Shown one piece after another: positions 3,631 through 48,420 of a stretch of 64,000 nt of DNA. The DNA comes from a phage: sequence record PZ295659.1. The stretch is one strand, 5' to 3'. Position numbers and translations under genes: made by a program. The notes under the pieces are model-generated. The model did no database searches, had not been told where the DNA came from, and saw nothing but the letters and a program-made list of their open reading frames with translations. Numbering within the stretch: position 1 is the stretch's first letter; every line of letters begins with the position of its first letter.

Positions 3631-3648
3631 AGGAGACTTCGGTCTCCT
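3631..3648 (+). terminator. Stem-loop AGGAGAC-UUCG-GUCUCCU followed by UUUU, directly after the gp35 stop
   Basis: Perfect 7-bp inverted repeat with UUCG tetraloop on the plus-strand transcript, then T-run. Confidence 0.55.
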
Positions 3649-3655
3649 TTTCGCG

Positions 3656-3663
3656 TATAAATA
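3656..3663 (+). promoter_or_regulatory. T4-type late promoter TATAAATA upstream of gp36
   Basis: Exact TATAAATA about 27 nt upstream of the gp36 ATG, with SD taaggag in between. Confidence 0.65.
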
Positions 3664-3689
3664 CTTTAATATTAATAAGGAGACACGAA

Positions 3690-4346: not shown

Positions 4347-4354
4347 GAGGACTT

Positions 4355-15810: not shown

Positions 15811-16746
15811 TTATTCTGCAAATAATTCAGTAACGTCTGAAATTACTTCATAACGACAAGTACGCATCTTAGCATCACCATAGTCAACTGGGATAGATAC
15901 AACATCACGTGGATGAACTTTAACCTTAACAACTTTATCTGAGCTAGAACCAAAGTAACGAATATATGATTTAGCACAAACATGTAGACCACGGGAACAA
16001 GTTTGTGTATCATCATCGTTAACACGAGTACGAGGCATTGAAACAACTTTACCAGGCGAGTTATCAAATGTGCCGCTATAGCAATCTAAATAGTCCTTAC
16101 GAACTACTTTCCATGCGTAGAAATGTCCGTCTTCAGTGATTTCAATATCATTTGCAACCAAGAAGTCGAATAAACGTTGTACAGCTTTTTCGCTTGGGTT
16201 TTCTAACAGGTTTTCAAGGAACGGCAGATAGAATTTAAAGTCTTCGCCTTTTTCCATGGAATCAATAATACGGTTAACCAGTCCTGAACGAATTTCTATA
16301 CCTTGATAAAATAAACTACCACCTTCAATAGTAACATTACCATCAACAAACTTAGTAATAGCTTTCTTGATGTTAATAAGTTCGACAGCTTTACTAAGGT
16401 TTCCTGCGACCAAATTAGCTTTAATTTCTTCAAAATTTGCATGACTTGATGGGGTCGCATTGTATGCTACGCGTCCTTCAATGATTGAAATAAATTTAGA
16501 TGACGCGTTCCATACGATTTCTGGACGATGACCTGTAATAATAGGTTCATTATTTTCTGGGATCTGTTCTTCGTCTTCAAATTCAGCTGCTTTCTCTTCA
16601 GCTTTAAAATTCTTAACAATCTTACGAAGAGTATCTGTTGAAATGTCAAAGTAATCGGCAATTTCTTTACGGGTCCATTTGCCTGATTTGACCAGGTCGT
16701 AAGCTTCTAACTGTTCTTCTTGGGACAAGCATTTGATATTGTACAT
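15811..16746 (-). CDS. rIIB: rIIB protein
   Basis: 311 aa; MYNIKCLSQEEQ...; size and position as T4 rIIB. Confidence 0.9.
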   Translation of the reverse strand: MYNIKCLSQEEQLEAYDLVKSGKWTRKEIADYFDISTDTLRKIVKNFKAEEKAAEFEDEEQIPENNEPIITGHRPEIVWNASSKFISIIEGRVAYNATPSSHANFEEIKANLVAGNLSKAVELINIKKAITKFVDGNVTIEGGSLFYQGIEIRSGLVNRIIDSMEKGEDFKFYLPFLENLLENPSEKAVQRLFDFLVANDIEITEDGHFYAWKVVRKDYLDCYSGTFDNSPGKVVSMPRTRVNDDDTQTCSRGLHVCAKSYIRYFGSSSDKVVKVKVHPRDVVSIPVDYGDAKMRTCRYEVISDVTELFAE

Positions 16747-16755
16747 AATGTTTCC

Positions 16756-18969
16756 TTATTTGGCCGCTTCCACGGCCTTCATGAATTTAACGATTTGAGC
16801 GACCTGTTCTTTAGAAAGAGTACCACGTCGTCCCATGTATTCTGACACAATATGATAATTGGTTTCAAATTCAATAACCATTTTATCATCATTATCGTAA
16901 GCATTATCTTTAAGCTTATCGAAAATTTTAGCACACAATTCTAACTTCCTGTTTAAGTCTCTGTTATCAGCACCTGCGAATCGATTCCATCCCCAACGAT
17001 TATTTACTGTTGAAAGTTTTGCAAAATCTTTACTGATTTCTTTGTTCTTAGAGCTAAAATACTTACTAAGGAAGTTAAGCTCTTCATTACGAGTAATATG
17101 ATTCAAATAAGGCTGTGCTCTACGACTTGGTGATACATACTCATCATAATCCACTTTATCAATTAGCGTAATATAGTCATTAATTGATTTTTCGAACAAG
17201 CATTCTACTTCACCAAGTTTACGAACTTTCTTAGCAATCTGTGGACGGACTACAGTGAACTCTTTAATACCTGATAAATCGGCAATACGAGTCAAGAAAC
17301 TAGAATCGTAGTTCAACCAACCTTTATTTGCGTCAAGACATTCAGCGTTAGAACGATTACGAATTACAACATAACCTTGGATTTCATCAGCTTTACCGGC
17401 TGGAATAAAGAGATCTTCTGATACCCAAACATCGTTTTCATTCTTAAAGAACCGATGAGCACTCGGTGATTTAGGACGAGGCTGTGATGAACGTTCTTTA
17501 ACTTCAATCCACGGTTTAACTAATGCAAGAATTTCAGAGGTCTTATAGAATTTAAGGCTATCACCAGCGAAAATAACCTTTAATCGTTCTAGAAGTTTCA
17601 TTGCAACTTCATCTTCCGGGTTAATGAATAATACACTACTACCACGTCCGGAAGGAACCTTATCAACGAGTGTTGATGCATCGGCGGAAGCCAAAGCATC
17701 GTTCAGAGCACGCATCATTGGTACGCGGCCTTTCACATCGTCAATAACAATATCAATATGCTTACGACTAATACCTAGCAGGCTATTAATTGAAATAGTT
17801 GCAGACGAGCTTCCGCTTTCACGAATACGACGAAGTCGTGGGTCTGAAACGATATCATATACAACGCCGAGGTTGCACCATTCAGGTCCCATTTTAAAAC
17901 GTTTGTACAACTCAGAATAAGTTAGCTGTTCTTTAGAATATTTCAGTGATTCAATATTAGAACCAGCTTTTTCCATGTATTTACGAGCAGAGTAACCAAG
18001 AGAATCGATTTCACGGAATACATGACGTGGATATTCACAATCAATCCATTTCTTAGAATCTTCAGCAAATAATTTTGCATCGATTTCTGCAACACGTTTA
18101 TGGATATTTGCTACTGTACGTTTATCAAATGACAACGCTTCACGAGACGGGGCTACATCTAGTTCACCCATAGGGAATTTAATATAAGCTGTAGTGCATC
18201 GCGTCATCATCCATGTTTGTTCTTTAATAACACTTCCGATTGGATATACAATACCACCGTAAACAGCCATGATATTACCACGTTCACCCCATGGAGCTTC
18301 CTTGGCTAAATAAACATCATCGAATTCCGGGAAGTATTTGATATCTTTAACACCACGAACTTCTGCAATGTCACCCAGAGGACGCATAACATAAGCAATT
18401 TCGGATGCGAACTTTTCAAAATCTTCTGGGTTAACAGGCACAACTACTTCAACGCCGGTCCGGTCATCAGGGCCCATCTTATCTACGAAGGTTGGCTTAA
18501 TCTGTGGACCTGTGTCATCTTGGTAGATTACGTAACCACGAACTTCACCGTTGTGATAAGACGTAAGGTTAAACGTATCGGTATATGCTAGTGGAGCTTT
18601 AGAGCCGAGTCCGAATCCACCAATGAAATCGTTACTCGATGTTTTAGTTGAAGCAAAATATGAATTATAGATTCCTGGCTCTTCGTCATTACCTCGAATG
18701 GTGAAATCACTCATACCAGGACCAAAGTCTCGAACTACAAAACGTGGGTCTAAACGACCTGGAGCCTGAACAATAAACTTATCAGTGCAACCATTAAGAA
18801 TTTGACCGTCGATACAGTTTGTGATTAATTCACGTACACAAGCCAATTCTTTGTTTGTATAAAGGTCATTAGACAAAATCTTATAAACTTTGCTATTGCC
18901 TTGAATAGTAAATGCTGTGCTCTTACCGCCTGAACCAATAATCGTTTCTTTAGCCGTTTCAATAATCAT
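16756..18969 (-). CDS. rIIA: rIIA protein
   Basis: 737 aa; size and position as T4 rIIA, adjacent to rIIB. Confidence 0.9.
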   Translation of the reverse strand: MIIETAKETIIGSGGKSTAFTIQGNSKVYKILSNDLYTNKELACVRELITNCIDGQILNGCTDKFIVQAPGRLDPRFVVRDFGPGMSDFTIRGNDEEPGIYNSYFASTKTSSNDFIGGFGLGSKAPLAYTDTFNLTSYHNGEVRGYVIYQDDTGPQIKPTFVDKMGPDDRTGVEVVVPVNPEDFEKFASEIAYVMRPLGDIAEVRGVKDIKYFPEFDDVYLAKEAPWGERGNIMAVYGGIVYPIGSVIKEQTWMMTRCTTAYIKFPMGELDVAPSREALSFDKRTVANIHKRVAEIDAKLFAEDSKKWIDCEYPRHVFREIDSLGYSARKYMEKAGSNIESLKYSKEQLTYSELYKRFKMGPEWCNLGVVYDIVSDPRLRRIRESGSSSATISINSLLGISRKHIDIVIDDVKGRVPMMRALNDALASADASTLVDKVPSGRGSSVLFINPEDEVAMKLLERLKVIFAGDSLKFYKTSEILALVKPWIEVKERSSQPRPKSPSAHRFFKNENDVWVSEDLFIPAGKADEIQGYVVIRNRSNAECLDANKGWLNYDSSFLTRIADLSGIKEFTVVRPQIAKKVRKLGEVECLFEKSINDYITLIDKVDYDEYVSPSRRAQPYLNHITRNEELNFLSKYFSSKNKEISKDFAKLSTVNNRWGWNRFAGADNRDLNRKLELCAKIFDKLKDNAYDNDDKMVIEFETNYHIVSEYMGRRGTLSKEQVAQIVKFMKAVEAAK

Positions 18970-18981
18970 ATTTTTCTCTCA

Positions 18982-19182
18982 TCACAAGTTACGTTTAAAA
19001 ATTTCTGCTACTTCAAGAAGTTCTTCTTTAGTAGCTGTATCGGTTTGTATTTTATATCGAATTTCTTTAAAGCGTTCTTTAAAAGACTCTGCCGACTCGA
19101 TATCAAAAAATCTTTGGATAAGCCGGAATTCCCGGAGCACCGCTTTATCAAAAAGGTCCAAGTCCACGTTATATGTTCTCAT
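18982..19182 (-). CDS. Small protein rIIA.1-like
   Basis: 66-aa ORF immediately upstream of rIIA. Confidence 0.5.
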   Translation of the reverse strand: MRTYNVDLDLFDKAVLREFRLIQRFFDIESAESFKERFKEIRYKIQTDTATKEELLEVAEIFKRNL

Positions 19183-19207
19183 AATATTCTCTTCAGTAGA
19201 TTCCTAG

Positions 19208-19258
19208 GGCACTATTACTAAAGACCATATAATCTATCATCTTATGTGTAATAGTGCC
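19208..19258 (-). other. Long inverted repeat (11-bp stem ggcactattac / gtaatagtgcc, 29-nt loop containing TATAAT-like sequence)
   Basis: Perfect 11-bp arms in the intergenic space between the glycosyltransferase gene and rIIA.1. Confidence 0.5.
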
Positions 19259-19274
19259 TCAGGCTATTCAGGAT

Positions 19275-20375
19275 TTACGCTGTGAAGATTTTATCCCACA
19301 TCGCAACAACTGCATCTCGATTATACTTCTTCCATACTGCTTCAGCACGTTTAACTCGAGCTTCGTATGTGTCAGTGAATTCTAATACAGCTTTTGTGTA
19401 AAGCGCAACTACTTCTTTCTTAGGAGTAGAGGAATCAATTTCTACACGCACAGTATCTGGGTCGTATTCGAATGTCGCATGAGGATAATCCTTAAAAACT
19501 AACTGGATTACGGGGACACCTTTAGAGATGGCTTCAATAGAACTATTCTCTACTGTACCTGTGTCAGGACACGTATTAATAAGTGCTTTAGCTGTTTTAA
19601 GGCGTTCCATGATTTCACTGTGTGGAGCATCAATAATAACAGGATATTTAGCTGGTGGAGCCCATTTACTAGGACAGTATCCTACACCATTTTCGCCTAG
19701 TGCTTTAATCGCTTCAAGAGCAACATCGGTACGACGCATTTTAGTGTCATAACGTTGTGCACTAATAATCAGATCAGTCGCCGGAAGAACTTCAGGTTTC
19801 TCATTCAAACAAATAACCGGATAATCTTCGGCTTCAAACAACGGATTTGCTCGCCAATAATCATAATCAATTTTGTCAGTCAGAGCTGAAGTCATATGGC
19901 AATATTTACGTTCAAATTCACGGAAGGCTTTAGTAGGAGCATAACTCTTACCACCATTCTTATGAATTTGAATAGTCTGGTCCCAAATTTGAACAATGCC
20001 ACGAGATACCGGTTCAAATGGTGTTGCCATAAAATTCTTATGAACTTTAGAGAGACCTGCGTCTTTAATTGCCTGAACGGTTAGTTTAGTCGGTTCCATA
20101 GTAACAACAAAATCGTATTCATTGATGCCGGCTAGTTCAACAATCTTACGAGCCATAGTATAACTCATACCTAGACTGAATTTAGTCAGATGACCAACAG
20201 GATGGTGTGTAACTTTCCAGTCACCAAACGTGTCATTATCAAAGCCGATATAATCAATATCAGCACCGATGGACACAAGATATTTCAACACATTTAAATG
20301 TACTGCTTCAAGGCCACCTTGTACACGGTCAGGATTAAATGGGACTGCACGAGATGGGATAAACATAACTTTCAT
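19275..20375 (-). CDS. GT-B fold glycosyltransferase (candidate DNA sugar transferase)
   Basis: 366 aa; N-terminal MKVMFIPSRA... Rossmann-like start and C-terminal ENSSIEAISKGVPVI resembling the GT4 E-x7-E motif; sits between rIIA.1 and gp39. Confidence 0.65.
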   Translation of the reverse strand: MKVMFIPSRAVPFNPDRVQGGLEAVHLNVLKYLVSIGADIDYIGFDNDTFGDWKVTHHPVGHLTKFSLGMSYTMARKIVELAGINEYDFVVTMEPTKLTVQAIKDAGLSKVHKNFMATPFEPVSRGIVQIWDQTIQIHKNGGKSYAPTKAFREFERKYCHMTSALTDKIDYDYWRANPLFEAEDYPVICLNEKPEVLPATDLIISAQRYDTKMRRTDVALEAIKALGENGVGYCPSKWAPPAKYPVIIDAPHSEIMERLKTAKALINTCPDTGTVENSSIEAISKGVPVIQLVFKDYPHATFEYDPDTVRVEIDSSTPKKEVVALYTKAVLEFTDTYEARVKRAEAVWKKYNRDAVVAMWDKIFTA

Positions 20376-20401
20376 AATTAAGCCTTATTAAAATTAAAAT
20401 G

Positions 20402-20419
20402 AAGCTCCAGAAGGAGCTT
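20402..20419 (-). terminator. Hairpin AAGCUCC-UUCU-GGAGCUU overlapping the gp39 stop
   Basis: 7-bp inverted repeat aagctcc/ggagctt with 4-nt loop. Confidence 0.4.
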
Positions 20420-22235
20420 AGGACATCCATTCTTTACGAAGTTCTGAATCATCACCCAACAACATTTCAAAGAGTTCTTTCCAATTTTCAGGAAGTTTAA
20501 CTACGTCGTACACAGGGTTCTGAATCATTTCACGATATTCTGACTTTTCAAGGGAGCCTAATCCCTTGATGTATCGAATACTATGCTTAGGAAGTGTATC
20601 TTTAGCTTCTTCATACTCAGCTACAGTATAAAACCATTTTTGAGTTTTGCCAATTTGTGCAATAATTACAGGCGTTTTAACAAAGCGAATACGTCCTTGT
20701 TCAAACAATTCAGGCCAATTACTAAAGAAAGCAAGCAAAGCTGGATAAATACTTCCAAGACCGTCATGATCGGCATCGGTCATAATTGCAATATTACGAT
20801 AGTTTGTATTCTCTGCCTTTTCACCAAGAATAAGACCTGTGATAGCACAGATATCAAAGAGCTCTTTATTCTTCATCATATCAGCATATGACATACCCCA
20901 GCTATTCATCACCTTACCACGTAATGGGAATCCGCCGTGTAGTTCACGGTCACGAACATCAATGAGATAACCAATTGCCGAATCACCTTCTGTTAAAAAC
21001 AATGTCGTATCTGCATCTTTACCACATTGGTTAGCTTTAATATGCTTATGAACCTTAGCTTTAGTTGCCTTTTTAGCTGCTTTAGTTTCTGCAGCTTTTT
21101 CTGCCGCCAATTTACGAGCTAATGCTGCTTCAACAATAGGCATAATCAAGGCTTCGTTTTTAAGAAGTGCCTGAGCAATTTTCTTAGCATCTAATTGGAT
21201 ATGATTACGAATATCACCATACGTTGACGTTAAACGTTCTTTAGTCTGAGAATCAAAACGCATGTTGCTCATGTCTCTAATAAACATCAACATTGTGAGA
21301 CATTCTTTAACACGAGCTTTAGTGACTTCAATACCCTTATATTTCTTTTTAATACCTGGCAAAAGATGTTCGCAGATATCATCCATTACACATTCAACAT
21401 GATGACCACCATTTTTAGTATGGATGTTATTCACATAAGTTAAATGACGGAAGCCATCTGGTGATGTTGTGAATGCTATAGAGACTTTATCATTTTCTTG
21501 AATGATGTTATCTTCGCCAAATTGTTTAGCAAATCGTTTAAAATTACCATCAACCTTTTTACCGTTAAATGTGAACTTGATATCAGGATAAACGACTGCC
21601 AATGTTTGAAGTCGGTCTAAAGTAATATCTAAATAAATTTGAGATAAATTATGTTCTTCAAATGAAGAGAAATCAGGAGTGAAGATTACTTTAGTGCCTT
21701 TACCTTTAGATTTCTTAGAAGACCATGATTTGTTTTCCATTCCGTTTGAACAGTTAACAGTGATTTCATTTTCGCCATCTGATGTGATGCCTGTAAACAA
21801 CGTAGAGAAGATATTAGTTAAACTACTCCCGACGCCGTTCATACCACCAGTCTTGCGTTCAGAGTCATCACCAAAGTTACCACCAGCCTTTGGAATAGTC
21901 CAGGCTGCTACAGGACCTGGAATCTGTTCACCATTTTGGTCGGTGACCATTGCTTGAGGAATACCACGTCCGTTATCTTCCACTGAGACTTGATTATTTT
22001 TAATTTGCACATCAATTTTATTTGCAAACTTAAACGATGTACGAATAGCTTCATCAACCGAGTTGTCAATAATCTCATCGATTAATTTAACCAGACCAGG
22101 AACATATTCAACTTGTTGATATTTACCAAACAAAAAACGCTCGTGGGCTTCTTTAGCCGAAGAACCAATATACATACCACTTCGTTTCTTAATATGTTCT
22201 ACATCTGACAGTACCTTAATTTCATTTTTAATCAT
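20418..22235 (-). CDS. 39: DNA topoisomerase II large subunit gp39, uninterrupted GyrB-like form
   Basis: 605 aa continuous ORF MIKNEIKVLSDVEHIKKRSGMYIGS... covering the ATPase and Toprim regions. Confidence 0.9.
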   Translation of the reverse strand: MIKNEIKVLSDVEHIKKRSGMYIGSSAKEAHERFLFGKYQQVEYVPGLVKLIDEIIDNSVDEAIRTSFKFANKIDVQIKNNQVSVEDNGRGIPQAMVTDQNGEQIPGPVAAWTIPKAGGNFGDDSERKTGGMNGVGSSLTNIFSTLFTGITSDGENEITVNCSNGMENKSWSSKKSKGKGTKVIFTPDFSSFEEHNLSQIYLDITLDRLQTLAVVYPDIKFTFNGKKVDGNFKRFAKQFGEDNIIQENDKVSIAFTTSPDGFRHLTYVNNIHTKNGGHHVECVMDDICEHLLPGIKKKYKGIEVTKARVKECLTMLMFIRDMSNMRFDSQTKERLTSTYGDIRNHIQLDAKKIAQALLKNEALIMPIVEAALARKLAAEKAAETKAAKKATKAKVHKHIKANQCGKDADTTLFLTEGDSAIGYLIDVRDRELHGGFPLRGKVMNSWGMSYADMMKNKELFDICAITGLILGEKAENTNYRNIAIMTDADHDGLGSIYPALLAFFSNWPELFEQGRIRFVKTPVIIAQIGKTQKWFYTVAEYEEAKDTLPKHSIRYIKGLGSLEKSEYREMIQNPVYDVVKLPENWKELFEMLLGDDSELRKEWMS

Positions 22236-22284
22236 GTTGTCTCCTCGTTATGAAGGTATTCTATCATCCGAAATCTAAAGCAAA

Positions 22285-22300
22285 AAGGGCCGAAGCCCTT
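22285..22300 (-). terminator. UUCG-tetraloop hairpin (AAGGGC-UUCG-GCCCUU) + U-run upstream of gp39
   Basis: Plus-strand aagggccgaagccctt between ORF 22299..22724 and gp39. Confidence 0.55.
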
Positions 22301-37513: not shown

Positions 37514-37855
37514 TTAAAAGAATTTAAATTTTTTCTTGGTCCGTTCATTAAAAGCTTGTTGTACTTGCATTGTAACACATTTTTCAACATGTGGTGCAAG
37601 TTCTGCTTTTCTGTCCTGGTCAAGAACTGCAAAGTCCATTACGATTTTACCATCAACCCAGTCTAGTTTTGTAATATAGACTATATGATGAGAACCATCT
37701 TCAAGCGTAATCAGAATCTCTTGAATGACATTTTCCATTGCTGAACGGATAATTTTAAGAGATTCATTAAACACTCGTTCTTTGCGAATGTCTTCCCCTT
37801 CCGAAGAAGGGGATTCATCAACGATTTCTAGATTTAAATCATCGAGATTATTCAT
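37514..37855 (-). CDS. 40: gp40-like small protein
   Basis: Start at ATG 37855 overlapping the uvsX stop by 8 nt; the alternative TTG at 37876 gives 120 aa; position as T4 gene 40. Confidence 0.5.
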   Translation of the reverse strand: MNNLDDLNLEIVDESPSSEGEDIRKERVFNESLKIIRSAMENVIQEILITLEDGSHHIVYITKLDWVDGKIVMDFAVLDQDRKAELAPHVEKCVTMQVQQAFNERTKKKFKFF

Positions 37856-39020
37856 CGAAATCTTCCATTTCGTCAAGGTCGTTTTCTATATCTGCTGCAG
37901 ACGGAGCATCAGAAGTTTTAACCGGAACTTTAGTTGTTGCTTTGCAATTAATAAGGTCGTTAACAGCGTCATCAACTTCTTTAATAGAAGAGATAGCACC
38001 TAGTTTATATTTAGTTTCAATTGCATCTCGGAAAGGTTTGTGTTTAAACAACGGTCCCCAGAATTCTACACAATCAGTAGCTTTAGCACGCCATGATTTT
38101 TCTTCACGAATCATTTCACCTGTTTCTTCGTCAAGGAATTCACGAGCATACCAACCAGCTTTAGGCTTAACTACAAAACCAATTTCAGTTGCCATTTCTA
38201 ACAAGCCACTGAATGGGTCAATACCACCATCAAAATTAACTGTGATCGGAAAAGTAGATTTCTCTTTAACCGTACGAGATTTTTCTGCTTTCAACGTGAA
38301 GTCATAACCGGTCAATTCTGTACCTTCTTTAACCTGACGTTTAGAGATAAAGAATACAGTGTTAGCAGAGTAAAGAATACCTGTACCACCACCCATAATC
38401 TCTTTAGGATACAATCCGCCAATTTCCATTGCGGTATGGTTAATTGCAACACACGGAATATCTTTAATAGTCAGATACGGGGTCACAATGCGGAACAGAG
38501 ATTTAAGTGCCTTAGCACGAGACATATCACCTACAACTTTCTCGTTCAATGCATCTTCGGTTTCTTTCTTAGATGCAGTATTACCGATTGAATCGATAAA
38601 GATAATAACTTTATCACCGCGTTCAATCGCGTCAAGCTGATTAGTCATATCAACTTTAAGTTGTTCGACAGATTGAATCGGAGTATGAACTACACGGTCT
38701 AAATCAACACCCATTGAACGAAAATAAGATTCTGAAGCACCAAATTCTGAATCATAGAACAAACAAATTGCATCTTTATATTTCTTCATATATGCTGCAA
38801 CCATGGTCAGACCAAACAACGTTTTAAAGTGTTTAGAAGGAGCAGCAAAAATAGTTAAGCCTGATTGCAACCCGGCATTCAGTGCACCACCTAATGCAAT
38901 ATTCAACATCGGAATACGAGTAGGGACTTCATCACGATTATTAAACAGCTTAGACTTAGTCAAGTCTGCAGTCATTTTAGAAGTAGAAGCTTTAATCAGA
39001 CGAGATTTTAAATCAGACAT
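37848..39020 (-). CDS. uvsX: Recombinase UvsX (RecA-like)
   Basis: 390 aa; MSDLKSRLIKASTSKMTADLTKSKLFNNRDEVPTRIPMLNIALGG...; matches remembered T4/RB69 UvsX. Confidence 0.9.
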   Translation of the reverse strand: MSDLKSRLIKASTSKMTADLTKSKLFNNRDEVPTRIPMLNIALGGALNAGLQSGLTIFAAPSKHFKTLFGLTMVAAYMKKYKDAICLFYDSEFGASESYFRSMGVDLDRVVHTPIQSVEQLKVDMTNQLDAIERGDKVIIFIDSIGNTASKKETEDALNEKVVGDMSRAKALKSLFRIVTPYLTIKDIPCVAINHTAMEIGGLYPKEIMGGGTGILYSANTVFFISKRQVKEGTELTGYDFTLKAEKSRTVKEKSTFPITVNFDGGIDPFSGLLEMATEIGFVVKPKAGWYAREFLDEETGEMIREEKSWRAKATDCVEFWGPLFKHKPFRDAIETKYKLGAISSIKEVDDAVNDLINCKATTKVPVKTSDAPSAADIENDLDEMEDFDE

Positions 39021-39120: not shown

Positions 39121-39669
39121 TTAACGAGCCCATTTGATAATTTCTGTAATCAAATTATTACGTTCGCTTGCATTAAATCCTATAACTTTGTTAGCACCAT
39201 CATGATTAAGTAATTGATACGTTTGGATTTCGTTATGAATTGCAAACTCTTCAAAATATGAAATGACTGTATTAAAACCGAACGAAGACAAAGTAATAAG
39301 GTCGTCTTCAAAACTTTCAGTCATTTCGTTACGTGTTAAAATAATTGTGAACACATCATGGTTTTGGCAAAGACGAACATAATCCTGTTCATAAACGTCA
39401 AGAACCGAGTCCGCATCTTGTCGAATACGTCCATAAACCCAGTTACTAATATATCCACGGTCTAACAGATAAATCTTAGTAGGGTCTAAATAATTCAACA
39501 TCGTTTCGAAACAGCCAACTTCATTTCGAGACTTAACATCGAAACGTCCATCAACTGTTCGTTTAGGGAAATCAATCTTTACATATCTTTCGCTAATTTC
39601 CATTATGTCATTAATGAAAGTTGTTTTACCAGCATTATCCGGGCCATCTACTAAAATAATTTTAGCCAT
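39121..39669 (-). CDS. P-loop NTPase, nucleoside/nucleotide kinase-like
   Basis: 182 aa; Walker A ILVDGPDNAGKTTF; no direct T4 counterpart at this position. Confidence 0.5.
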   Translation of the reverse strand: MAKIILVDGPDNAGKTTFINDIMEISERYVKIDFPKRTVDGRFDVKSRNEVGCFETMLNYLDPTKIYLLDRGYISNWVYGRIRQDADSVLDVYEQDYVRLCQNHDVFTIILTRNEMTESFEDDLITLSSFGFNTVISYFEEFAIHNEIQTYQLLNHDGANKVIGFNASERNNLITEIIKWAR

Positions 39670-39670
39670 T

Positions 39671-40570
39671 TTATTCCTCGATTACGACATCTTCATATTT
39701 AGGTATATTATACGGCGAAGAAATTAAAGCATTAAAGTAGATGAACTCACCAAGACCTGGATGGAATACTTCTTCAGGATTTTCGAAATATTGAATCTTC
39801 GGTCGTCCTTTAAGAATTTGATAGTACTCAGTTTTAGTTGGGTTAAAAATTCGAATCAGCGCTTCTTCAGGATACTTATTTCTGTCGAAGCTATTATTTG
39901 GATCGGTTATATAAAGCGGTTGGCCTAATTGAATTGCACATTCAACCACTTGTTCAAAACGATAACACGGGTCACTAATTCGAAATGGATGAAAAATACC
40001 ATCTAGATGAATAGGAGCCAAATCACCTACAAGACGCTGCATGATGGAAGGACGTATAACTTTCTGCGTTACGATAATCTTATTACCATCTGCACCTGCG
40101 TTAACCAGCACTTCTTTTTGACGTTCATTCAACACAGTAGTTTGAAGTGAACGATTAACCGACAACATGTCGGTTTTTAAGAATTCGTCAATATAAAAAC
40201 GTGGTTTATTAGGGTCCGCAGTGATATTGAAATTGAATTCCACATCAAAAGCGCCGTCATATCCAGTGATATCTGTGATTAGAAAATCACAATCATAATA
40301 AGCAATTAATGAATCAACCACAAATTCATTTTCAGACCAGAAATATTTACGAGTGTTATATGCGTTATCTTTATACCATAATGGAACAAACTTAAATTCT
40401 GGGAAAAGACGTTCACATTCTTTAATATCAGATGCATTACGTGGATATGTAATCACATCACCCGGATTAGCACGGTGCAAATGAAGTTGGAAGTTGCCAT
40501 CCTTAAGGATAGCATACTGTCCAGTTTCATAAGACCGCATACTCAAGATAGGTACGCGGAAAATAGCCAT
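39671..40570 (-). CDS. Protein of unknown function at the beta-glucosyltransferase locus; candidate DNA sugar transferase
   Basis: 299 aa between uvsX and gp42; no recognisable similarity to remembered T4 beta-gt; no motifs identified. Confidence 0.35.
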   Translation of the reverse strand: MAIFRVPILSMRSYETGQYAILKDGNFQLHLHRANPGDVITYPRNASDIKECERLFPEFKFVPLWYKDNAYNTRKYFWSENEFVVDSLIAYYDCDFLITDITGYDGAFDVEFNFNITADPNKPRFYIDEFLKTDMLSVNRSLQTTVLNERQKEVLVNAGADGNKIIVTQKVIRPSIMQRLVGDLAPIHLDGIFHPFRISDPCYRFEQVVECAIQLGQPLYITDPNNSFDRNKYPEEALIRIFNPTKTEYYQILKGRPKIQYFENPEEVFHPGLGEFIYFNALISSPYNIPKYEDVVIEE

Positions 40571-41286
40571 TAGTCAAGGAATCCTTTAACATAATCAAAA
40601 TCACGTTCAAACACATGGGCACTTACCATGGTATGAGTATAATCACCAACTTCTACACCACATTCGTTAGCGATATAATGAAGTAATTTTCCTTGGAGAT
40701 AAAAATCCAACTGCATAACAACAGCACAGTTCTGAGAACGCATATGACAGTGGGTATAAAGCTTACCATCACGAATATAATAAGTCACTGAGTCAGTACA
40801 TGGATATTCAAGTGTTTCGTCCGAATCAAGCAAAGCCTGATCTGAACTTTCTAGAATTTGGAACACAACTCTTCGGGAGTTAGGCTTCTCTTTAAGTTCT
40901 TTTAGAAGAGCTGGTAATTGAGCCGCAATGCGAGGACCGTAGAAAGTGTTGAAGTTTGCAGGCAAAGCGTCTGATTTAGGTTTAGAAATAAATTTAGCGA
41001 CATTAGGATATGCCTTAAATGCTTCTTCTGCATCAGTACCACCAGAAATCATAAACTTCCAGAAGTCTTCGGCATATTCATAAGAGATGCGATTAATACG
41101 TGGATCGGTCATTTTGAATGATGAAGGGGTATCAACAACTACTGTCATAGACCCAATTTCATTACAACGTCCAATACGAGAATCAGTAACGAACTGTGGA
41201 TTTTCTAAAATTTCACGATTAACAGCTTTAAATGCGGATTGAAAATCTGCGGCTTTAATATATTTCATTGTGTTATGTTTTCCCAT
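40570..41286 (-). CDS. 42: dCMP hydroxymethylase (thymidylate synthase family)
   Basis: 238 aa; PCTDSVTYYIRDGKLYTHCHMRSQN aligns with the T4 gp42 active-site region CTNTVQYLIRD; SD gaggt; N-terminus diverged from my recollection of T4. Confidence 0.65.
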   Translation of the reverse strand: MGKHNTMKYIKAADFQSAFKAVNREILENPQFVTDSRIGRCNEIGSMTVVVDTPSSFKMTDPRINRISYEYAEDFWKFMISGGTDAEEAFKAYPNVAKFISKPKSDALPANFNTFYGPRIAAQLPALLKELKEKPNSRRVVFQILESSDQALLDSDETLEYPCTDSVTYYIRDGKLYTHCHMRSQNCAVVMQLDFYLQGKLLHYIANECGVEVGDYTHTMVSAHVFERDFDYVKGFLD

Positions 41287-41304
41287 GTTTACCTCAATAC
41301 AGTT

Positions 41305-41328
41305 ATTATATACTCAATTCATAAAGCT
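41305..41328 (-). promoter_or_regulatory. Candidate MotA-dependent middle promoter for gene 42
   Basis: Minus-strand AGCTTTA (one mismatch to the TGCTTTA MotA box) 11 nt upstream of TATAAT. Confidence 0.35.
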
Positions 41329-41406
41329 TATTTGAATTTCTTAGCAATGTTGATATAACGTAAAGCTTCAGCATCGATACTTCCAAGAACACTATGAAGA
41401 AATGCA

Positions 41407-41568
41407 TCAGCGTAGTATTCTAGTTGAACAGGTTTCTTTAATCACTTTAGCCGCTTTAGTTTCAAACAGGCCCATAAGGGCCTTTTTAAGAATTTGTTCG
41501 TTGCTGTTAATTTTCGTAGTCAAAATCTCTTCATTAAGTTGGTGGTTAAAAGTTTTTCTAGAAATCAT
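41407..41568 (-). CDS. Possible small protein (53 aa) coupled by ATGA to the Cys-rich gene
   Basis: ATG overlaps the upstream TGA; region also contains a GGCCC/GGGCC hairpin, so coding status is uncertain. Confidence 0.3.
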   Translation of the reverse strand: MISRKTFNHQLNEEILTTKINSNEQILKKALMGLFETKAAKVIKETCSTRILR

Positions 41569-42725
41569 TCCGGGTACCTCAAAGCGTCGTCAGAGTTAGT
41601 TATATCAATAATAGATATAGAGTTTTCTGCTAACCCATTTTTAGATAACTGACGTTTATAATATCTTTCACAATATGTACACGTCGTCCCGCAGATTTCA
41701 TTAGCACAATCGAAATCTGGATGTCTGAACCACCTTTTTTCTAAAAAGCCATCTAACAAAGAGGTTTCAATATTTACCGTATGTGAAAACTCGGTCTCAT
41801 TTTCAAGAGTGAAAATAGTCTCTAAAGGCTTCCACAATTCCAACAAATTACCTTCAAATTTTTCAGAAGCATAAGCTTCAAGAACTTTCAAAATGTAGTC
41901 TGTGCTACCTGTACGTCCTGAAACTTTGAATTGAGTGATACCAATATCATTATAAAGTTTCAAATCTTGAGGACGAACAAAACGAGTTCTCAACCAGTTA
42001 AATGGGTCTGTATCACGAGCTTTAATACAGTGTTGCATTGGATAGCCATTTAAGGATTTGGCATCATCTACTGTAACGTCGGTGCTATGGAAAATATAGC
42101 AAGAGTCACGATAGCTACAATGTGTTGTATACCCTTTACCAGCATTAGAACAGAACTCATTTACAAGAACTTCAAATATTATATTGTTCTTATTGCAAAA
42201 CTCTGCTGCACGCTTCAGGAAAGAAACTGAACGGTTCTTATGAATTCCACAGCAGACCTTTTTGATATTATATTGGTCATGCAAGTATTTGATTTGAGTT
42301 ACAGCATCGACATGTAGAATTGTTGAAACTTCAATCTCAATGTCTTTATTAACTTCACGAACAATTTCCATAACAACAGGGTTAGCGATAGTAATACGCC
42401 ATACGCCTATTGACCAAAGATACTGAACATAATCCTGAATAGCTTTCTTCTTCCACTCAACTAGTTCTCTTTTTGAACCAGGATTTATCGTGTTGAGTGT
42501 ATAGTTAAAGCAAATACCTAATTCGTTACAACGTTTAACATAATCTTCTAACATCTTTTTGTCAACGTCAGGAAGCCTAAAATCAGGTCTGGCTGCTACA
42601 AAAGCCATTTCTCTTGTAGAGCCGTATACTTCATTTATCAAGCTATTAGGATAAGTTTTATTGAGCTCTACGATTTTATCAAGAAGAGCTAAATCAAAAT
42701 TCGTTCCGATTTTAAAAGTATTCAT
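41565..42725 (-). CDS. Cys-rich protein of unknown function, possible metal or Fe-S binding, in the sugar-nucleotide module
   Basis: 386 aa; C-terminal CANEICGTTCTYC (C-x4-C-x3-C-x2-C) plus further Cys pairs; weak resemblance to U32-type Cys-rich segments not confirmed. Confidence 0.5.
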   Translation of the reverse strand: MNTFKIGTNFDLALLDKIVELNKTYPNSLINEVYGSTREMAFVAARPDFRLPDVDKKMLEDYVKRCNELGICFNYTLNTINPGSKRELVEWKKKAIQDYVQYLWSIGVWRITIANPVVMEIVREVNKDIEIEVSTILHVDAVTQIKYLHDQYNIKKVCCGIHKNRSVSFLKRAAEFCNKNNIIFEVLVNEFCSNAGKGYTTHCSYRDSCYIFHSTDVTVDDAKSLNGYPMQHCIKARDTDPFNWLRTRFVRPQDLKLYNDIGITQFKVSGRTGSTDYILKVLEAYASEKFEGNLLELWKPLETIFTLENETEFSHTVNIETSLLDGFLEKRWFRHPDFDCANEICGTTCTYCERYYKRQLSKNGLAENSISIIDITNSDDALRYPE

Positions 42726-42779
42726 TTTTACATCTCGCGTTAATTGATGCGATGGTTTTTGCAGGTCTTACTTAAATTA

Positions 42780-43181
42780 TTATAGATTCGGTTTATATGA
42801 TTTAAATGTTTCGAATTCGCCTTTATTCATAAGAGCTTTGAATTCGTCAGGACGCATAGCTTTGTCGTCGATAATCCAATCATATACTGGTTTATGTGTT
42901 AGCAAATTATGGTACTTCAAGCCAATGTTTGCCAAGTTCTGAATCAGACTTGGGAGAATGTCAATTGCTATACGACCAGGACCTACTGACTTCATACCGC
43001 GAGCAGTGTAAAGCGTTATTGTATGCCCTGCATCATACAGGGCATTAATGGCAGACACCATTTCGACGTCTGGTTTGAAGTTCACGTAATCACGATTGTT
43101 ATTCCACTCGGTTATACAATCATCGACATCAAAACAAAGATTAAGCATGTTTTCTACACGGTGCATTAGATTCGTTCCCAT
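42780..43181 (-). CDS. HAD-superfamily phosphatase (small, capless)
   Basis: 133 aa; motif I-like FDVDDCIT, then LYTAR and KP...WIIDDKA; an alternative ATG at 43166 overlaps the upstream stop as TAATG. Confidence 0.55.
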   Translation of the reverse strand: MGTNLMHRVENMLNLCFDVDDCITEWNNNRDYVNFKPDVEMVSAINALYDAGHTITLYTARGMKSVGPGRIAIDILPSLIQNLANIGLKYHNLLTHKPVYDWIIDDKAMRPDEFKALMNKGEFETFKSYKPNL

Positions 43182-44851
43182 TGATGAGTGATATCGCCAC
43201 CGATTGGACGATAGGAAACACCAGTTTCTTTATCAGTTAGTACCCATTTACCAGGATTTTTTGTAATCAGAGTAGCCGTTACAGGTTCTGCTACGTCATA
43301 ACTAATAGAGCCGTCTTGAAGTACACGGCCCATGTTACGTAATTGCTTAGTCAGAAGTTCCATACCTTTATAATATGCGGCTACCGCTTTAAGTGGATTA
43401 TTCTTGAAATAACCACCTAATGCAATCCAGATAATTGCTACAGCCAAATGATGATACTCGTTAAACGAACTCATCTTTCCATATTTGTAAACTAATGGAT
43501 TGATGTTAATAGTCACATTACAAGTTGTTTCATCAATAGTAAACTGACCCCAGGTCGGATTAGCGTTGAATTCATCATAACCTGAAACAGCGTAAAGCAC
43601 TTTAGCTTCATCATACAATTTTGGCCCGTAAATCTTGGTTTCACCAAAATATCCACGAGGGTCGATAAACTTGACTTCACCATTATCAGTAATCATAGTA
43701 TTACTGAAGTTCGGGTCACCATGAATAACAGAGTACTGTCCCTGAGAACGGTTATGATAACGAATAAGGTGTTCTAAAGCTTGTTTCAACATTGGCTTCA
43801 GACGTCCAATCTTAGTGTAGTTCACATGTGTGATTTTACCAAATGAATCAATCAATGGTTGAATACTTTCACAACGATCAATAACTTTCGTATAGAATTC
43901 TTTAGTGAAATCACGACGAACAGTTTCAGGACTTACAAAATAAGTGTCTGTGCTGAATTTCAGTGCATCTAAAATTGCATCAACAATTTGTGGACGAGCA
44001 AGACTCGATTTGGATTTAATATATTCAAATGCCGGCTTACCTTTAATGCGTTCCATTTCAAAGTTATTTTCATTAACAGAAACTAACTGAGGAACTGAAT
44101 CTGATTTCACTTTAAGATACCATGAAATCTCATCTTTCTGAAGAGCTCGACCCTGTTCGGTTAATGCGAATTTAGTTACAGTTTCTTCACCAATTTCAAC
44201 TGCATTAAAACTACGATTAAGTTCACGAACTTCATGAGCTTTTTCAAGTTTAGGCATATCACCTAAATCAATTAGATTCATAAGCTCTGATTTATTGAAT
44301 GCGCTGCCGTAAAGGAATTCTACGAAATCACGCCCTTTGCAGTATTCATGAATTTCCTCATCAGTAGAACCCATATAGAATTCCCAGTCTTTGAACTGAT
44401 AAATTCCTACAACATTACCACCTGTTGAACCTACGTTAGTGATATTTTCACCGTCGAAATTATATCGACATTCGTCACCCTTAACATAGATTGCGTTAAC
44501 ATTCCAAGACCATGAACCAAAATCAGGAATAATATCGCACCAGTTAACAATTACATTATGGCTGTCTAAATCTTTGTGTAATTTAGCAAGAGCATAAGCA
44601 GAACCATACGCTTCATCAACTGTACGAATAGTCACATTGAACCCTTCTTGCTCACAATAAGCTCGAACAGTTTCAGCAAATTTTGAATGAACTACTACAA
44701 TAATTTCATCTGCGCCAAGGTCAGAATAAATTGTATACAAATTGCTCAGAATAGTGTCTTGTTTATAGTTAACAAGCACCTTAGGAATATGATGCGTTAT
44801 TGGATACAAACGAGTTGCCAGTCCAGCACCAAGAATAACAGCTTTTTTCAT
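43166..44851 (-). CDS. Bifunctional sugar-1-phosphate nucleotidyltransferase / APH-fold sugar kinase fusion
   Basis: 561 aa; N-terminal AVILGAGLATRLYP (RmlA-type G-x-G-T-R-L), C-terminal VIHGDPNFSNTMI...FIDPRG (Brenner and D-x-x-G motifs of choline/aminoglycoside kinase fold). Confidence 0.65.
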   Translation of the reverse strand: MKKAVILGAGLATRLYPITHHIPKVLVNYKQDTILSNLYTIYSDLGADEIIVVVHSKFAETVRAYCEQEGFNVTIRTVDEAYGSAYALAKLHKDLDSHNVIVNWCDIIPDFGSWSWNVNAIYVKGDECRYNFDGENITNVGSTGGNVVGIYQFKDWEFYMGSTDEEIHEYCKGRDFVEFLYGSAFNKSELMNLIDLGDMPKLEKAHEVRELNRSFNAVEIGEETVTKFALTEQGRALQKDEISWYLKVKSDSVPQLVSVNENNFEMERIKGKPAFEYIKSKSSLARPQIVDAILDALKFSTDTYFVSPETVRRDFTKEFYTKVIDRCESIQPLIDSFGKITHVNYTKIGRLKPMLKQALEHLIRYHNRSQGQYSVIHGDPNFSNTMITDNGEVKFIDPRGYFGETKIYGPKLYDEAKVLYAVSGYDEFNANPTWGQFTIDETTCNVTININPLVYKYGKMSSFNEYHHLAVAIIWIALGGYFKNNPLKAVAAYYKGMELLTKQLRNMGRVLQDGSISYDVAEPVTATLITKNPGKWVLTDKETGVSYRPIGGDITHQWERI

Positions 44852-44892
44852 GTTGTGGTCCTCATTGGTAAGTAGGAGTATTGTACACTATT

Positions 44893-45036
44893 CTAGTTAA
44901 AGCATTCATACTTTGCTTGTAGTCCAATCATAATCCATCCGATTACAAGTGTTGGAATCATTACTGGAGCCGTTAAGCTCCAGTAGATAGTCATGACAAG
45001 CATCAATAGTAAAAGTCCTATTGTTATTGCTTTCAT
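44893..45036 (-). CDS. Small hydrophobic peptide (47 aa) coupled by ATGA to the isomerase gene
   Basis: MKAITIGLLLLMLVMTIYWSLTAPVMIPTLVIGWIMIGL...; ATG overlaps the TGA of the SIS gene. Confidence 0.4.
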   Translation of the reverse strand: MKAITIGLLLLMLVMTIYWSLTAPVMIPTLVIGWIMIGLQAKYECFN

Positions 45037-45668
45037 TGTTCGCCTCGTAACATGGCACCTAGTGCACCGCCAGGGTGGAACTTAAGGAAGTCATTAGAGG
45101 TAAATCCACGTTCAGACGAAAGGTTGATAGCAAACGTATCGATAAGCGCTAACAACAATGTAGTGGACATGGTCGGAGCCAGAGAATTCTCATCAACCTC
45201 TACTGCGATGCCTGTACAGAACGTATAATCAAAAAGAGCTTCATATTCTTGTGGAATGTCTGGGTTACAATGCAACAGAATCTGTTTGACGTTCGGACGA
45301 ATCATTTTAAGATGCTTAGCCACGCCTATCATTTCTTCAGTTTTACCAGAACGACTAATATGAATCAACACATCATTAGGCGCAATGAATCCTGCATCAC
45401 CGTGAGAATAATGCCCGGTGTTCAAGTACATACTAGGGATACCGAGTGAAGCAAATGTTTCAGAAGCTTTAGTTGCAATATTAGCATTCTTACCAACACC
45501 TGTAATAATTACTCGGCTTTCATAATTACTAAGCCCTGGGCGTCGAAGAGTTTCTAGAATAGCATTATAACGAGCAGGGTTTTGACTAATTACTTTGGCC
45601 ATAGCGGCCAAAGAAGAAGCTTGTTTTATGATTGCGTCAATAGCGATAGTAATAGGAGTAGTTTTCAT
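45033..45668 (-). CDS. SIS-domain sugar-phosphate isomerase, KdsD/GutQ-like (arabinose-5-phosphate isomerase type) without CBS domains
   Basis: 211 aa; ITGVGKNANIATKASETFASLGIPSMYLNTGHYSHGDAGFIAPNDVLIHISRSGKT parallels the KdsD SIS core GMGKSGHIG...HGDLG...ISNSGES. Confidence 0.7.
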   Translation of the reverse strand: MKTTPITIAIDAIIKQASSLAAMAKVISQNPARYNAILETLRRPGLSNYESRVIITGVGKNANIATKASETFASLGIPSMYLNTGHYSHGDAGFIAPNDVLIHISRSGKTEEMIGVAKHLKMIRPNVKQILLHCNPDIPQEYEALFDYTFCTGIAVEVDENSLAPTMSTTLLLALIDTFAINLSSERGFTSNDFLKFHPGGALGAMLRGEQ

Positions 45669-45708: not shown

Positions 45709-48420
45709 TCAAAAATCGAACATATCGAAAAGAGATGCTTTCTTCTCGTAATCGAGTTTCGCTGCTGATGTGAATCCTTCAAGTGGTTTAATAAATGTCT
45801 TCTCAAGGAGAACAGTGTAGTCCATCCAATGAAGTACGTCGTCTTTAATTAAATCTGTGATTTCAGTACCAGAAGGCCATGCGATACATTTATCACCGAA
45901 TGGGTTTCCTTCACGTAAAGGCAGAACATATACTTTTTCACCTTCTACAACTTGCGGTGCATCGATATTACCTTTGATGGCCCGGTTATATGTCAGAATT
46001 CCACGAATATGGAACGGACATTTAGGACCAGGGAATCCACCTACGTCATATTTAGCGATGTTATTCGCAGAAGATACCGACGCGATGCTAATATAATTCA
46101 ATTGACGGAATTCTTTTTCAAACTCTTTAAAATATTCTTGTAATGATTCTTCACCTTCTTGAAGCATACGACGAATACATTCTTTAAGAGCTTTCTGTAC
46201 GGCTTTAGGAGTCGAAGATTTCTGCGTCTCTAGACCCATGATTTTGAGTTTAGGCTCAGCGTAACGAGTACCTTCCATATCCCACACGTTTAATGCATAA
46301 CGTTTCTTACCAGTCCAGAATCCACCAATACCTTTAGAACCAAGTGGAGGCCCAGCGATAGCTTCTCGGTCCATGAACATTAAGTGTTGTTTATTGTTCA
46401 TGTATTCACACATTTCACGGAAACCTCTATCAATAGCTGGTTCCATACGTTCACGTGCAAACTTATCTAAGAAGTCTACCCAGTGGTTGGTATCACGGAA
46501 TTTAGATTCACCAACCTTATCGATAATTTTATCAGCAGATACGTAAATAGAGTCTGTATCACCATAAAGAACGAAAGCTTCACCTTCTGTACCACAAACT
46601 TCGTTCAGATATTCATTAACTTTACGTTCAATCCACTGTAAAGCCATTTGCCCAAATGTTGTGATTGCAGTAGCATTACGCAAATCATAATAACGGAACC
46701 AAACGTTGCCAAGTGCACCATAAAGTGAGTTGATAAGCAATTTACGGTTAATTTGAGCAGTCATACCTGCAACTTCGGTACGTTGAGCTCTAAACAACAT
46801 TTCATTAAGAGATTTAGCAGACAACTTTTTAATCTTTTCTTTAATCTCATCACTGAAGTCGAAACGATAATCAACATCTAATGGTTCGTCAACAGAAAGA
46901 TTAGGATTATGCAATGCCTCTTTAATTATTTCACCGTTACGTTGAGCTGCAAGCATGTAACCTTTATGTTCTTTACGTTGATTAAAGACCTTAGTGATTT
47001 CAGTTGGAACTACACCATCACGGTCTTTATAATACATCATGCCGTTAGGAGAGCAACTGTACACATCTGAAGGACGTTCAGCAACAGCGTTAATATAATC
47101 ATGCAATGGAGCTACTTTAAACGTTCCTGCTATTGTTTCCGGGCTAATATTCACTTGGCGAATAATACTTGGATACAGAGATGTAAGGTCGAAACTCATT
47201 ACATATTTGTATCGATTTGGAATAGGTTCCTTAACAAAAGCACCAGGATAAGGTTGAACCGGGTGAGAACGACCTTGTGGAATCACCTTGTTCTGCTCTT
47301 TAAGGCTATTAAAAATAATAGCATCCCATGTTTTAATTGGGCTAAACACAGATTGAATCTGTATCTTAGCATAATAACCCATGTCCAAACTCAAGTTGAT
47401 GAACTGACGCTTAGCATCAATTTGCAATACACGATACACGTCGATAATGTTATAAGAAATATATCGTTGGTGATTGCTTTCACGAAGCTTAGAAATAGGG
47501 CCGTCATATTTCAGTTTACCAACGTTCAATTCAAATTCTGAAATGTAATCCAGAGAATATGACGGCTGATTGGTAAAAGAGAATTTTTTGTAAAGGTCAA
47601 TGTAATCAAGAACAGAGATACCGAACAATGTAATGATTTCACGAGAACCATACATGTTTTCGATAACTTTAACACGAGTTTTACGATGTGGTGATAAACG
47701 TTTCGCAGTAGATTCGCCAAAAATATTCTTGATTCGGTTATACACATATGGAATATCAAATGACTCAACGTTCCATCCAGTCAAAATGACAGGAGTTTTC
47801 TGTTGCCAGAAGTTGAGATATTCCATCAACAATTCTTTTTCGTTATCGAACGGCATATAAATGATTTTATCGATAATTTCGGATGGAACTTCATCACCGC
47901 CTTGTTCTTGAAGCTTGGCCGCAATTTCGATAGACCATTCTTCTACATTACCATATGGAGAATTCAATAGATCAAATACGTAGAACCTGTCGTCAATTGA
48001 GTCATAATGGGTGATAGCATCAATCGGATGTTTTGCTTGTGACGGCTCAGGGAACCCATCCGGGGATGTTACTTCGATGTCGAAGTTAGCCACACGAATT
48101 TTTGTATGGTCGTATTTGATTTCATAGTTATAAGTGTCAGACAAATACGCCAATTTGAAATCGTCCATGCCAAGTGCTTCAAGTCCGATATCTTCCATGC
48201 GTTTAATCCATTGGGAGGCATCACGCATATTGGCGAACAACTTACGAGTACACGGCTTACCATAGATATCAAAATATTTCGTGGCCTGACTTTCAGGACA
48301 ATGTGCAAACAATGATGGTTTATACTCTACTTCACGAGTACGTTCACGGCCGTTAGAATCGATGTAACGTTCAAAAATTGAATCACCAATCTGTTCAACC
48401 GTTAAGTAAAATTCTTTCAT
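45709..48420 (-). CDS. 43: DNA polymerase gp43 (family B), RB69-type
   Basis: 903 aa; MKEFYLTVEQIGDSIFERYIDSNGRERTREVEYKPSLF... matches my recollection of RB69 gp43; exonuclease and polymerase motifs (YGDTDS) present. Confidence 0.95.
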   Translation of the reverse strand: MKEFYLTVEQIGDSIFERYIDSNGRERTREVEYKPSLFAHCPESQATKYFDIYGKPCTRKLFANMRDASQWIKRMEDIGLEALGMDDFKLAYLSDTYNYEIKYDHTKIRVANFDIEVTSPDGFPEPSQAKHPIDAITHYDSIDDRFYVFDLLNSPYGNVEEWSIEIAAKLQEQGGDEVPSEIIDKIIYMPFDNEKELLMEYLNFWQQKTPVILTGWNVESFDIPYVYNRIKNIFGESTAKRLSPHRKTRVKVIENMYGSREIITLFGISVLDYIDLYKKFSFTNQPSYSLDYISEFELNVGKLKYDGPISKLRESNHQRYISYNIIDVYRVLQIDAKRQFINLSLDMGYYAKIQIQSVFSPIKTWDAIIFNSLKEQNKVIPQGRSHPVQPYPGAFVKEPIPNRYKYVMSFDLTSLYPSIIRQVNISPETIAGTFKVAPLHDYINAVAERPSDVYSCSPNGMMYYKDRDGVVPTEITKVFNQRKEHKGYMLAAQRNGEIIKEALHNPNLSVDEPLDVDYRFDFSDEIKEKIKKLSAKSLNEMLFRAQRTEVAGMTAQINRKLLINSLYGALGNVWFRYYDLRNATAITTFGQMALQWIERKVNEYLNEVCGTEGEAFVLYGDTDSIYVSADKIIDKVGESKFRDTNHWVDFLDKFARERMEPAIDRGFREMCEYMNNKQHLMFMDREAIAGPPLGSKGIGGFWTGKKRYALNVWDMEGTRYAEPKLKIMGLETQKSSTPKAVQKALKECIRRMLQEGEESLQEYFKEFEKEFRQLNYISIASVSSANNIAKYDVGGFPGPKCPFHIRGILTYNRAIKGNIDAPQVVEGEKVYVLPLREGNPFGDKCIAWPSGTEITDLIKDDVLHWMDYTVLLEKTFIKPLEGFTSAAKLDYEKKASLFDMFDF

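Follow-up and report, generated by a model that had tools for sequence, protein, structure and literature searches.

A GT-B glycosyltransferase encoded between rIIA.1 and gene 39 of a Mosigvirus-type phage is proposed as the second, distal DNA arabinosyltransferase

The window analyzed here, a stretch of 64,000 nucleotides of phage DNA (record PZ295659.1), encodes on its minus strand a 366-amino acid protein that is most probably (at about 85%) the Mosigvirus orthologue of RB69 gp3 (ORF003c), a UDP-sugar-dependent GT-B enzyme acting as the second arabinosyltransferase on phage DNA. Four lines of evidence support this reading, namely the fold together with the UDP complex of an orthologue, the association with an arabinosylation pathway, the copy number of the gene, and the in vitro extension of arabinose chains by homologues. 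All of this is a rediscovery of a known component, since the literature and the PDB already cover the gene with its fold, locus and proposed role. An earlier note, made from the letters of this DNA, had read the gene as one of two putative glycosyltransferases, perhaps adding successive or differently linked sugars to DNA, an interpretation that is supported by our analysis apart from the substrate chemistry.

The gene is a real open reading frame with an ATG start, of the length and at the position between rIIA.1 and gp39 given in the earlier note (Table 1), and its GC content of 0.38–0.39 is ordinary for the window. The protein matches PHROG 8302, a family labeled as of "unknown function", over residues 1–366 of 366 (E 4e-222). 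Full-length identity to the RB69 and HY126 proteins is 98–99%: 360 of 366 residues (98%) are shared with RB69 ORF003c (RB69p003) and 364 of 366 with the chains of PDB entries 9iqz and 9ir0, which were released in 2025 and are titled as the glycosyltransferase of phage HY126 in the apo form and with UDP. A full-text literature search on these two PDB codes returned irrelevant papers only. The GenBank protein of HY126, encoded at the same locus, differs from the window protein at four residues. Substitutions relative to RB69 and HY126 avoid the family-invariant alignment columns, with the exception of residues 288–289 of the HY126 GenBank protein (1744–2844 of the stretch compared), where L288-G289 replaces the P288-V289 found in the window, in RB69 and in the 9iqz/9ir0 chains as part of a nearly invariant G-V-P-V segment. 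This difference is probably an error of the genome record or a variant. The 9iqz chain has H85 and F315 in common with the HY126 GenBank protein.

An AlphaFold model computed from a 12-sequence alignment reached a pLDDT of 90 (a single-sequence run gave only 37.9) and superposes on 9iqz and 9ir0 with TM values of 0.96–0.97. The structure consists of two Rossmann-like β/α/β domains, with C-terminal helices that cross back to the N-domain as is characteristic of GT-B enzymes, and the N-terminal half is predicted to alternate between β-strands and α-helices. Structure prediction bears out both the GT-B assignment and the Rossmann-like N terminus of the earlier note. The protein is likely to bind a UDP donor, as indicated indirectly by the title of the 99%-identical entry 9ir0. 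The structural neighbors that follow 9iqz and 9ir0 are GT4-like GT-B enzymes at 10–14% identity, including the CAZy GT4-type proteins PimA (2gej), BshA (3mbo/6n1x), MshA (3c4q), WaaG and sucrose-phosphate synthase (6kih). At the sequence level the protein falls outside the GT4/Glycos_transf_1 models: no Pfam family was matched even at E ≤ 10, Glycos_transf_1 and Glyco_trans_1_4 included, NCBIfam likewise gave no family, and a six-sequence profile found no PDB sequence besides 9iqz.

The usual GT4 motif reads E-A-M-A-x-G-x-P-V-I, with two glutamates spaced E-x7-E. A C-terminal motif of this kind had been claimed for the string ENSSIEAISKGVPVI, which corresponds to residues 276–290, but its two glutamates, E276 and E281, are spaced E-x4-E and the GT4 E-x7-E motif is absent. 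When aligned by eye, E281-A-I-S-K-G-V-P-V-I corresponds to the usual GT4 sequence, and the canonical position of the first glutamate of E-x7-E is occupied by G273. Both E276 and E281 are invariant in the family, and the G20-G21 loop, R208 and R214 are invariant or nearly so. By analogy with GT4 enzymes, these residues are expected to be functional, with R208 and R214 predicted to contact the phosphates and E276 and E281 placed at the N terminus of helix 277–284.

In the minus-strand order, the gene 39-like gene (605 residues) is followed by the 366-residue frame, the rIIA.1-like gene (66 residues), rIIA (737 residues) and rIIB (311 residues), which is the gene order of RB69 (RB69p004-p003-p002-p001). 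The position between rIIA.1 and the gene for the topoisomerase large subunit is conserved in Mosigvirus and is the one found here, and a transferase locus at this site is already in print (PMC13390438). T4 was said in the earlier note to have only gene 60 at this site, whereas rIIA.1 and 39 are separated there by genes 60, 60.1 and mobA. In the window gene 60 is fused into the 605-residue gene 39, and the 366-residue frame consequently occupies the place of the short rIIA.1/60 spacer of T4. The fused gene 39/60 is without the gene 60 bypass element, 60.1 and mobA, unlike T4, and the fusion is as in RB69. In comparison with phages a20 and phi25-307, some close relatives have ~800 bp inserted in the stretch from rIIB to gene 39, with a homing endonuclease annotation; this insertion is absent from positions 16700..22300 of the window.

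Table 1. Features of the transferase locus and of the arabinosyl-5-hydroxycytosine module in the window
Feature	Position	Strand	Remarks
rIIA.1-like protein, 66 aa	18982..19182	-	downstream neighbor of the transferase gene
Stable hairpin	19203..19263	-	in the 92-nt spacer between transferase stop codon and rIIA.1 start codon; 16-nt arms, 88% complementary
GT-B glycosyltransferase, 366 aa	19275..20375	-	orthologue of RB69 ORF003c/gp3 and of the HY126 glycosyltransferase (PDB 9iqz/9ir0); proposed second (distal) DNA arabinosyltransferase
Small terminator-like hairpin	20402..20419	-	putative; 7 bp, 4 GC, then T-rich tail; overlaps gene 39 stop codon, 27 nt upstream of transferase start
DNA topoisomerase II large subunit, 605 aa	20418..22235	-	unsplit gene 39+60; upstream neighbor
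Nucleotide kinase-like protein, 182 aa	39121..39669	-	RB69 gp45 equivalent; role from PMC13326640 Table 1
First arabinosyltransferase candidate, 299 aa	39671..40570	-	RB69 gp46:47 equivalent; beta-gt locus; role from PMC13326640
ThyA-like dCMP 5-hydroxylase (5hodCMP synthase), 238 aa	40570..41286	-	Pfam Thymidylat_synt; near-identical to PDB 9iqc/9ir2/9iqu; function from PMC13326640
U32-family protein, 386 aa	41565..42725	-	RB69p050 equivalent; Pfam Peptidase_U32, 42.4 bits vs cutoff 22.4; weak UbiU match
HAD-like phosphatase, 133 aa	42780..43181	-	RB69 gp51 / AfhF equivalent; NCBIfam TIGR01689 (capsule biosynthesis phosphatase subfamily) E 4e-13, below its cutoff; role from PMC13326640
Bifunctional nucleotidyltransferase + kinase, 561 aa	43166..44851	-	RB69 gp52:53 / AfhE equivalent, makes UDP-arabinofuranose; Pfam NTP_transferase, weak kinase matches, PDB 1jyk; role from PMC13326640
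SIS-domain arabinose-5-phosphate isomerase, 211 aa	45033..45668	-	RB69 gp55 equivalent; Pfam SIS; role from PMC13326640

The DNA modification to which the gene would contribute has been characterized in RB69. Arabinose was found in RB69 DNA by Thomas et al. (2018), who nominated ORF003c as the arabinosyltransferase, likely with a GT-B fold (PMC6024577). Lee et al. (2026) identified the modified cytosine as β-D-Araf-(1-3)-α-D-Araf-5-hydroxy-2'-deoxycytidine, attributed the synthesis of 5-hydroxy-dCMP to a ThyA homologue, and, with the wording "we propose", assigned the first transfer to gp46:47 and named gp3 "β-arabinosyltransferase 2" (PMC13326640). This chemistry corrects the earlier note, which had assumed hmC as the substrate: the modified base is 5-hydroxycytosine, and what it carries is arabinofuranose. 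The note's idea of successive sugars from two transferases was right, with the role of gp3 a proposed one.

The window contains the published arabinosyl-5-hydroxycytosine module on its minus strand at 39121..45668, between the genes for DNA polymerase (45709..48420) and UvsX (37848..39020). Encoded there are the 5-hydroxy-dCMP synthase, the enzymes for UDP-arabinofuranose and the candidate first arabinosyltransferase. The gene for this 299-residue protein comes after the gene 42 homologue, a placement like that of beta-gt in T4, which identifies it as the candidate that the earlier note had placed at the beta-gt locus. The 299-residue protein has no match in Pfam, NCBIfam or the PDB sequences and no detectable relationship to the 366-residue protein (BLASTP E 1.7). 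It and the 561-residue kinase/uridylyltransferase are each encoded by one intact frame in the window. This agrees with a published account in which the splitting of RB69 genes 46/47 and 52/53 is put down to sequencing errors in the reference record.

The family of the 366-residue protein is tiny. An exhaustive profile search of 1.84 billion protein-cluster representatives gave just 11 at E ≤ 0.001, a word-index homology search gave five clusters, and a scan of viral contigs returned the same isolate lineages, so that no wider family could be built. By tblastn the protein is found in 212 phage records, 156 of them at ≥95% identity (Escherichia and Shigella Mosigvirus); the other 56 are <60% identical and stem almost entirely from Acinetobacter phages, with two family copies per Acinetobacter phage record. 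All members with a traced origin belong to a T4-like phage or a phage-like contig, several representatives, including the most distant (P0015), being untraced. As for the Glycos_transf_1 and Glyco_trans_1_4 models, only P0015 and P0010, both distant relatives, show any match, and this is sub-threshold. P0010, a divergent member of 394 residues and 35% identity, is encoded on a T4-like metagenomic contig (3040–4224) downstream of DNA ligase and a phage DsbA homologue, a third genomic position of the family, and shows a weak sub-threshold Pfam GT4-conflict match.

In the Acinetobacter phages AM101 and DLP2 the two copies are arranged in tandem within the modification cluster, directly 3' of the kinase gene; their identity to the window protein is 42% and 40%. 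These Lazarusvirus pairs (AM101 gp071/gp070, DLP2 047/048 and, by synteny, DLP3 gp77/gp76) belong to the same family at 40–42% full-length identity and share with the window protein the invariant G-G, R-x5-R and E-x4-E residues. In vitro, DLP3 gp76 and gp77 with UDP-Araf convert RB69 DNA to a tri-arabinosylated form, and the two are active just in combination, the single DLP3 transferases being inactive (PMC13326640). The Lazarusvirus pair thus adds the third arabinose jointly from two in-cluster copies, whereas the window has one copy, 20 kb away from its cluster. Across these phages the copy number of the family (0, 1, 2) tracks the number of extra sugars (0, 1, 2). The 299-residue protein is more widely spread: it is found in 349 phage records, also from Klebsiella, Serratia, Enterobacter, Proteus, Yersinia and Erwinia phages, and AM101 gp073, at the cluster position of the first transferase, is 46% identical to it. 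Such a distribution (349 vs 212 records) is the pattern expected of a first step common to all these phages, carried out by the 299-residue enzyme, and an optional extension by the 366-residue family.

In the proposed pathway, the ThyA-like enzyme would produce 5-hydroxy-dCMP, which after phosphorylation would enter the DNA in place of dC, while the isomerase, the kinase/uridylyltransferase fusion and the phosphatase would supply UDP-arabinofuranose. The 299-residue transferase would then attach α-D-arabinofuranose to the 5-hydroxyl of the base. The 366-residue enzyme, with UDP-arabinofuranose bound in the cleft between its two domains, would transfer β-D-arabinofuranose to O3 of the first arabinose in duplex phage DNA. 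The product would be the di-arabinosylated cytosine of RB69-type virions, which would shield the DNA from host nucleases. Both the β-1,3 linkage of the second sugar and this acceptor are ascribed to the window protein by inference. Among phage DNA hypermodifications, arabinosylated 5-hydroxycytosine has been resolved only recently; it confers protection against many restriction enzymes as well as against type I CRISPR-Cas and the Brig1 glycosylase (PMC13216743, PMC13326640). Deletion of the arabinosyltransferase (Aat) of phage Bas46 is reported, in work cited in PMC13216743, to sensitize the phage to a defense system. The number of sugars probably alters which host defenses a phage escapes or triggers, which makes the identity of the enzyme for the second sugar relevant to phage therapy and engineering.

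A different division of labor, in which the 366-residue protein is the priming transferase that places the first arabinose directly on the modified cytosine and the 299-residue protein has another role, would agree with the nomination of ORF003c as "the" arabinosyltransferase in 2018 (PMC6024577). The priming step has also not yet been reconstituted, as no activity was seen for any single transferase on 5-hydroxycytosine DNA (PMC13326640). We nevertheless regard this arrangement as improbable, because the gene is absent from most phage genera that have the rest of the pathway, as the record counts reflect, and because Thanatos, whose DNA is mono-arabinosylated, has only the 299-residue type of transferase (PMC13326640). 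The in vitro lengthening of an existing arabinose chain by the homologues and the agreement of copy number with extra sugars likewise argue against it.

Even less probable is an acceptor other than DNA, such as a lipid or glycan of the host envelope or a phage or host protein, which would make the enzyme unrelated to the DNA modification. The nearest structural neighbors are indeed envelope or small-molecule GT4 enzymes (PimA, WaaG, BshA, PglA), and the Mosigvirus gene lies ~20 kb from the modification cluster. However, similarities at such low identity reflect a generic fold, the family has only 11 cluster representatives, its members of traced origin all come from T4-like phages or phage-like contigs, and the Acinetobacter homologues are encoded within the modification cluster and act on DNA in vitro. 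It is similarly very unlikely that the enzyme modifies DNA with another donor or at another position, that is, with another pentose or a hexose, or by forming a branch instead of a β-1,3 extension. The title of the solved complex names UDP only and no sugar, and the gp3 linkage was assigned by elimination (PMC13326640), which leaves some room for this reading. Against it, NMR of RB69 DNA showed Araf-Araf on 5-hydroxycytosine and nothing else (PMC13326640), a dedicated UDP-Araf pathway is encoded in the genome, and UDP-Araf is the donor used by the homologues.

Some observations count against the second-arabinosyltransferase reading itself. Since gp76 and gp77 are active only jointly, a lone paralogue may behave otherwise. 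The E-x4-E spacing in place of E-x7-E and the lack of any Pfam or NCBIfam glycosyltransferase match also weigh against it, as does the fact that the closest structural neighbors are retaining GT4 enzymes but the proposed linkage is β. An α linkage between sugar and base and a β linkage between the sugars, presumably both formed from one UDP-Araf donor, would mean that one transferase inverts and the other retains, so that the proposed product of the 366-residue enzyme is anomerically opposite to that of its partner; both window transferases have their closest structural neighbors among retaining GT4-type enzymes. It is conceivable, though doubtful, that the 366-residue enzyme is the inverting one. 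It would then have a GT4-like scaffold, with its motif shortened to E-x4-E, and yet perform an inverting furanosyl transfer to a DNA-bound sugar, which would be mechanistically unusual.

Among the glucosyltransferases of the T-even phages, a functional counterpart of the second arabinosyltransferase is the second glucosyltransferase of T2 and T6 (gentiobiosyl-hmC), which likewise adds a second sugar to the sugar of a modified cytosine, with a linkage unlike the first (PMC6024577; PMC13390438). The likeness is one of function, as T2 and T6 use hmC, glucopyranose and another locus, whereas the base and sugar here are 5-hydroxycytosine and arabinofuranose. With the α-glucosyltransferase (1y6f/1xv5) and β-glucosyltransferase of T4 the 366-residue enzyme has in common the GT-B fold and, as proposed, a UDP-sugar donor and a DNA acceptor. 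It shows no sequence or profile homology to T4 β-gt, whose position next to the gene 42 homologue is held in the window by the partner transferase, and it is not closer to T4 α-gt than to other GT-B families.

The inverted repeat that the earlier note had seen just downstream of the gene is present, with arms at 19203–19218 and 19248–19263. The RNA folds into a longer hairpin, with a free energy of −28.6 kcal/mol (z = −4.05) that none of 200 shuffles matches, and this hairpin is found at ≥95% identity in 155 Mosigvirus-type records; the equivalent spacer of T4 contains no significant hairpin (z −1.04). The hairpin has no match in Rfam and is not followed by a U-tract. Across eight sequences its stem has acquired three wobble-preserving and two to three disruptive changes and no compensatory one, a pattern indistinguishable from shuffles. 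The hairpin is real and stable, and protection of the mRNA 3' end, processing or attenuation are candidate roles. The small hairpin upstream of the transferase start is followed by an AAGG Shine-Dalgarno-like element and is a putative terminator, the count of terminator-like sites in the region equaling chance expectation. A sigma-70 promoter scan of the region gave five sites compared with 5.3 expected by chance, and the surroundings of the transferase gene are free of T4 late-promoter motifs, for which reason no promoter was assigned to it.

The gene for the U32-family protein sits between those for the phosphatase and the ThyA-like 5-hydroxy-dCMP synthase. The U32 proteins include the O2-independent, prephenate-dependent hydroxylases RlhA, which forms 5-hydroxycytidine in rRNA, TrhP and UbiU/V (PMC5727448, PMC6599085, PMC6747719, PMC10990095). 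The phage protein is listed in PMC13326640 only as a "sugar or heterocycle reductase", and the link to oxygen-independent hydroxylases is not mentioned there. Between the U32-like and ThyA-like genes, at the position of RB69ORF049c, the window has a frame of 53 residues (41407..41568, minus strand) where an Erwinia phage has a chorismate mutase; the idea that it is a decayed chorismate mutase was rejected, as it has no Pfam match and a tblastn E of only 0.16. In that Erwinia phage, Virsaitis27, the gene after the U32 gene codes for a genuine chorismate mutase of type II (CM_2, 44.6 bits; stretch 3492–5002), the enzyme that makes prephenate. The phage U32 protein is ≥80% identical over 222 records, from phages of Enterobacterales and Shewanella, which are facultative anaerobes. 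Acinetobacter is a strict aerobe; the U32 gene is absent from the Acinetobacter phage clusters examined (AM101, DLP2), and at most a few of the 222 records are from Acinetobacter phages. The U32 protein may be an oxygen-independent cytosine hydroxylase that provides an anaerobic route to 5-hydroxycytosine.
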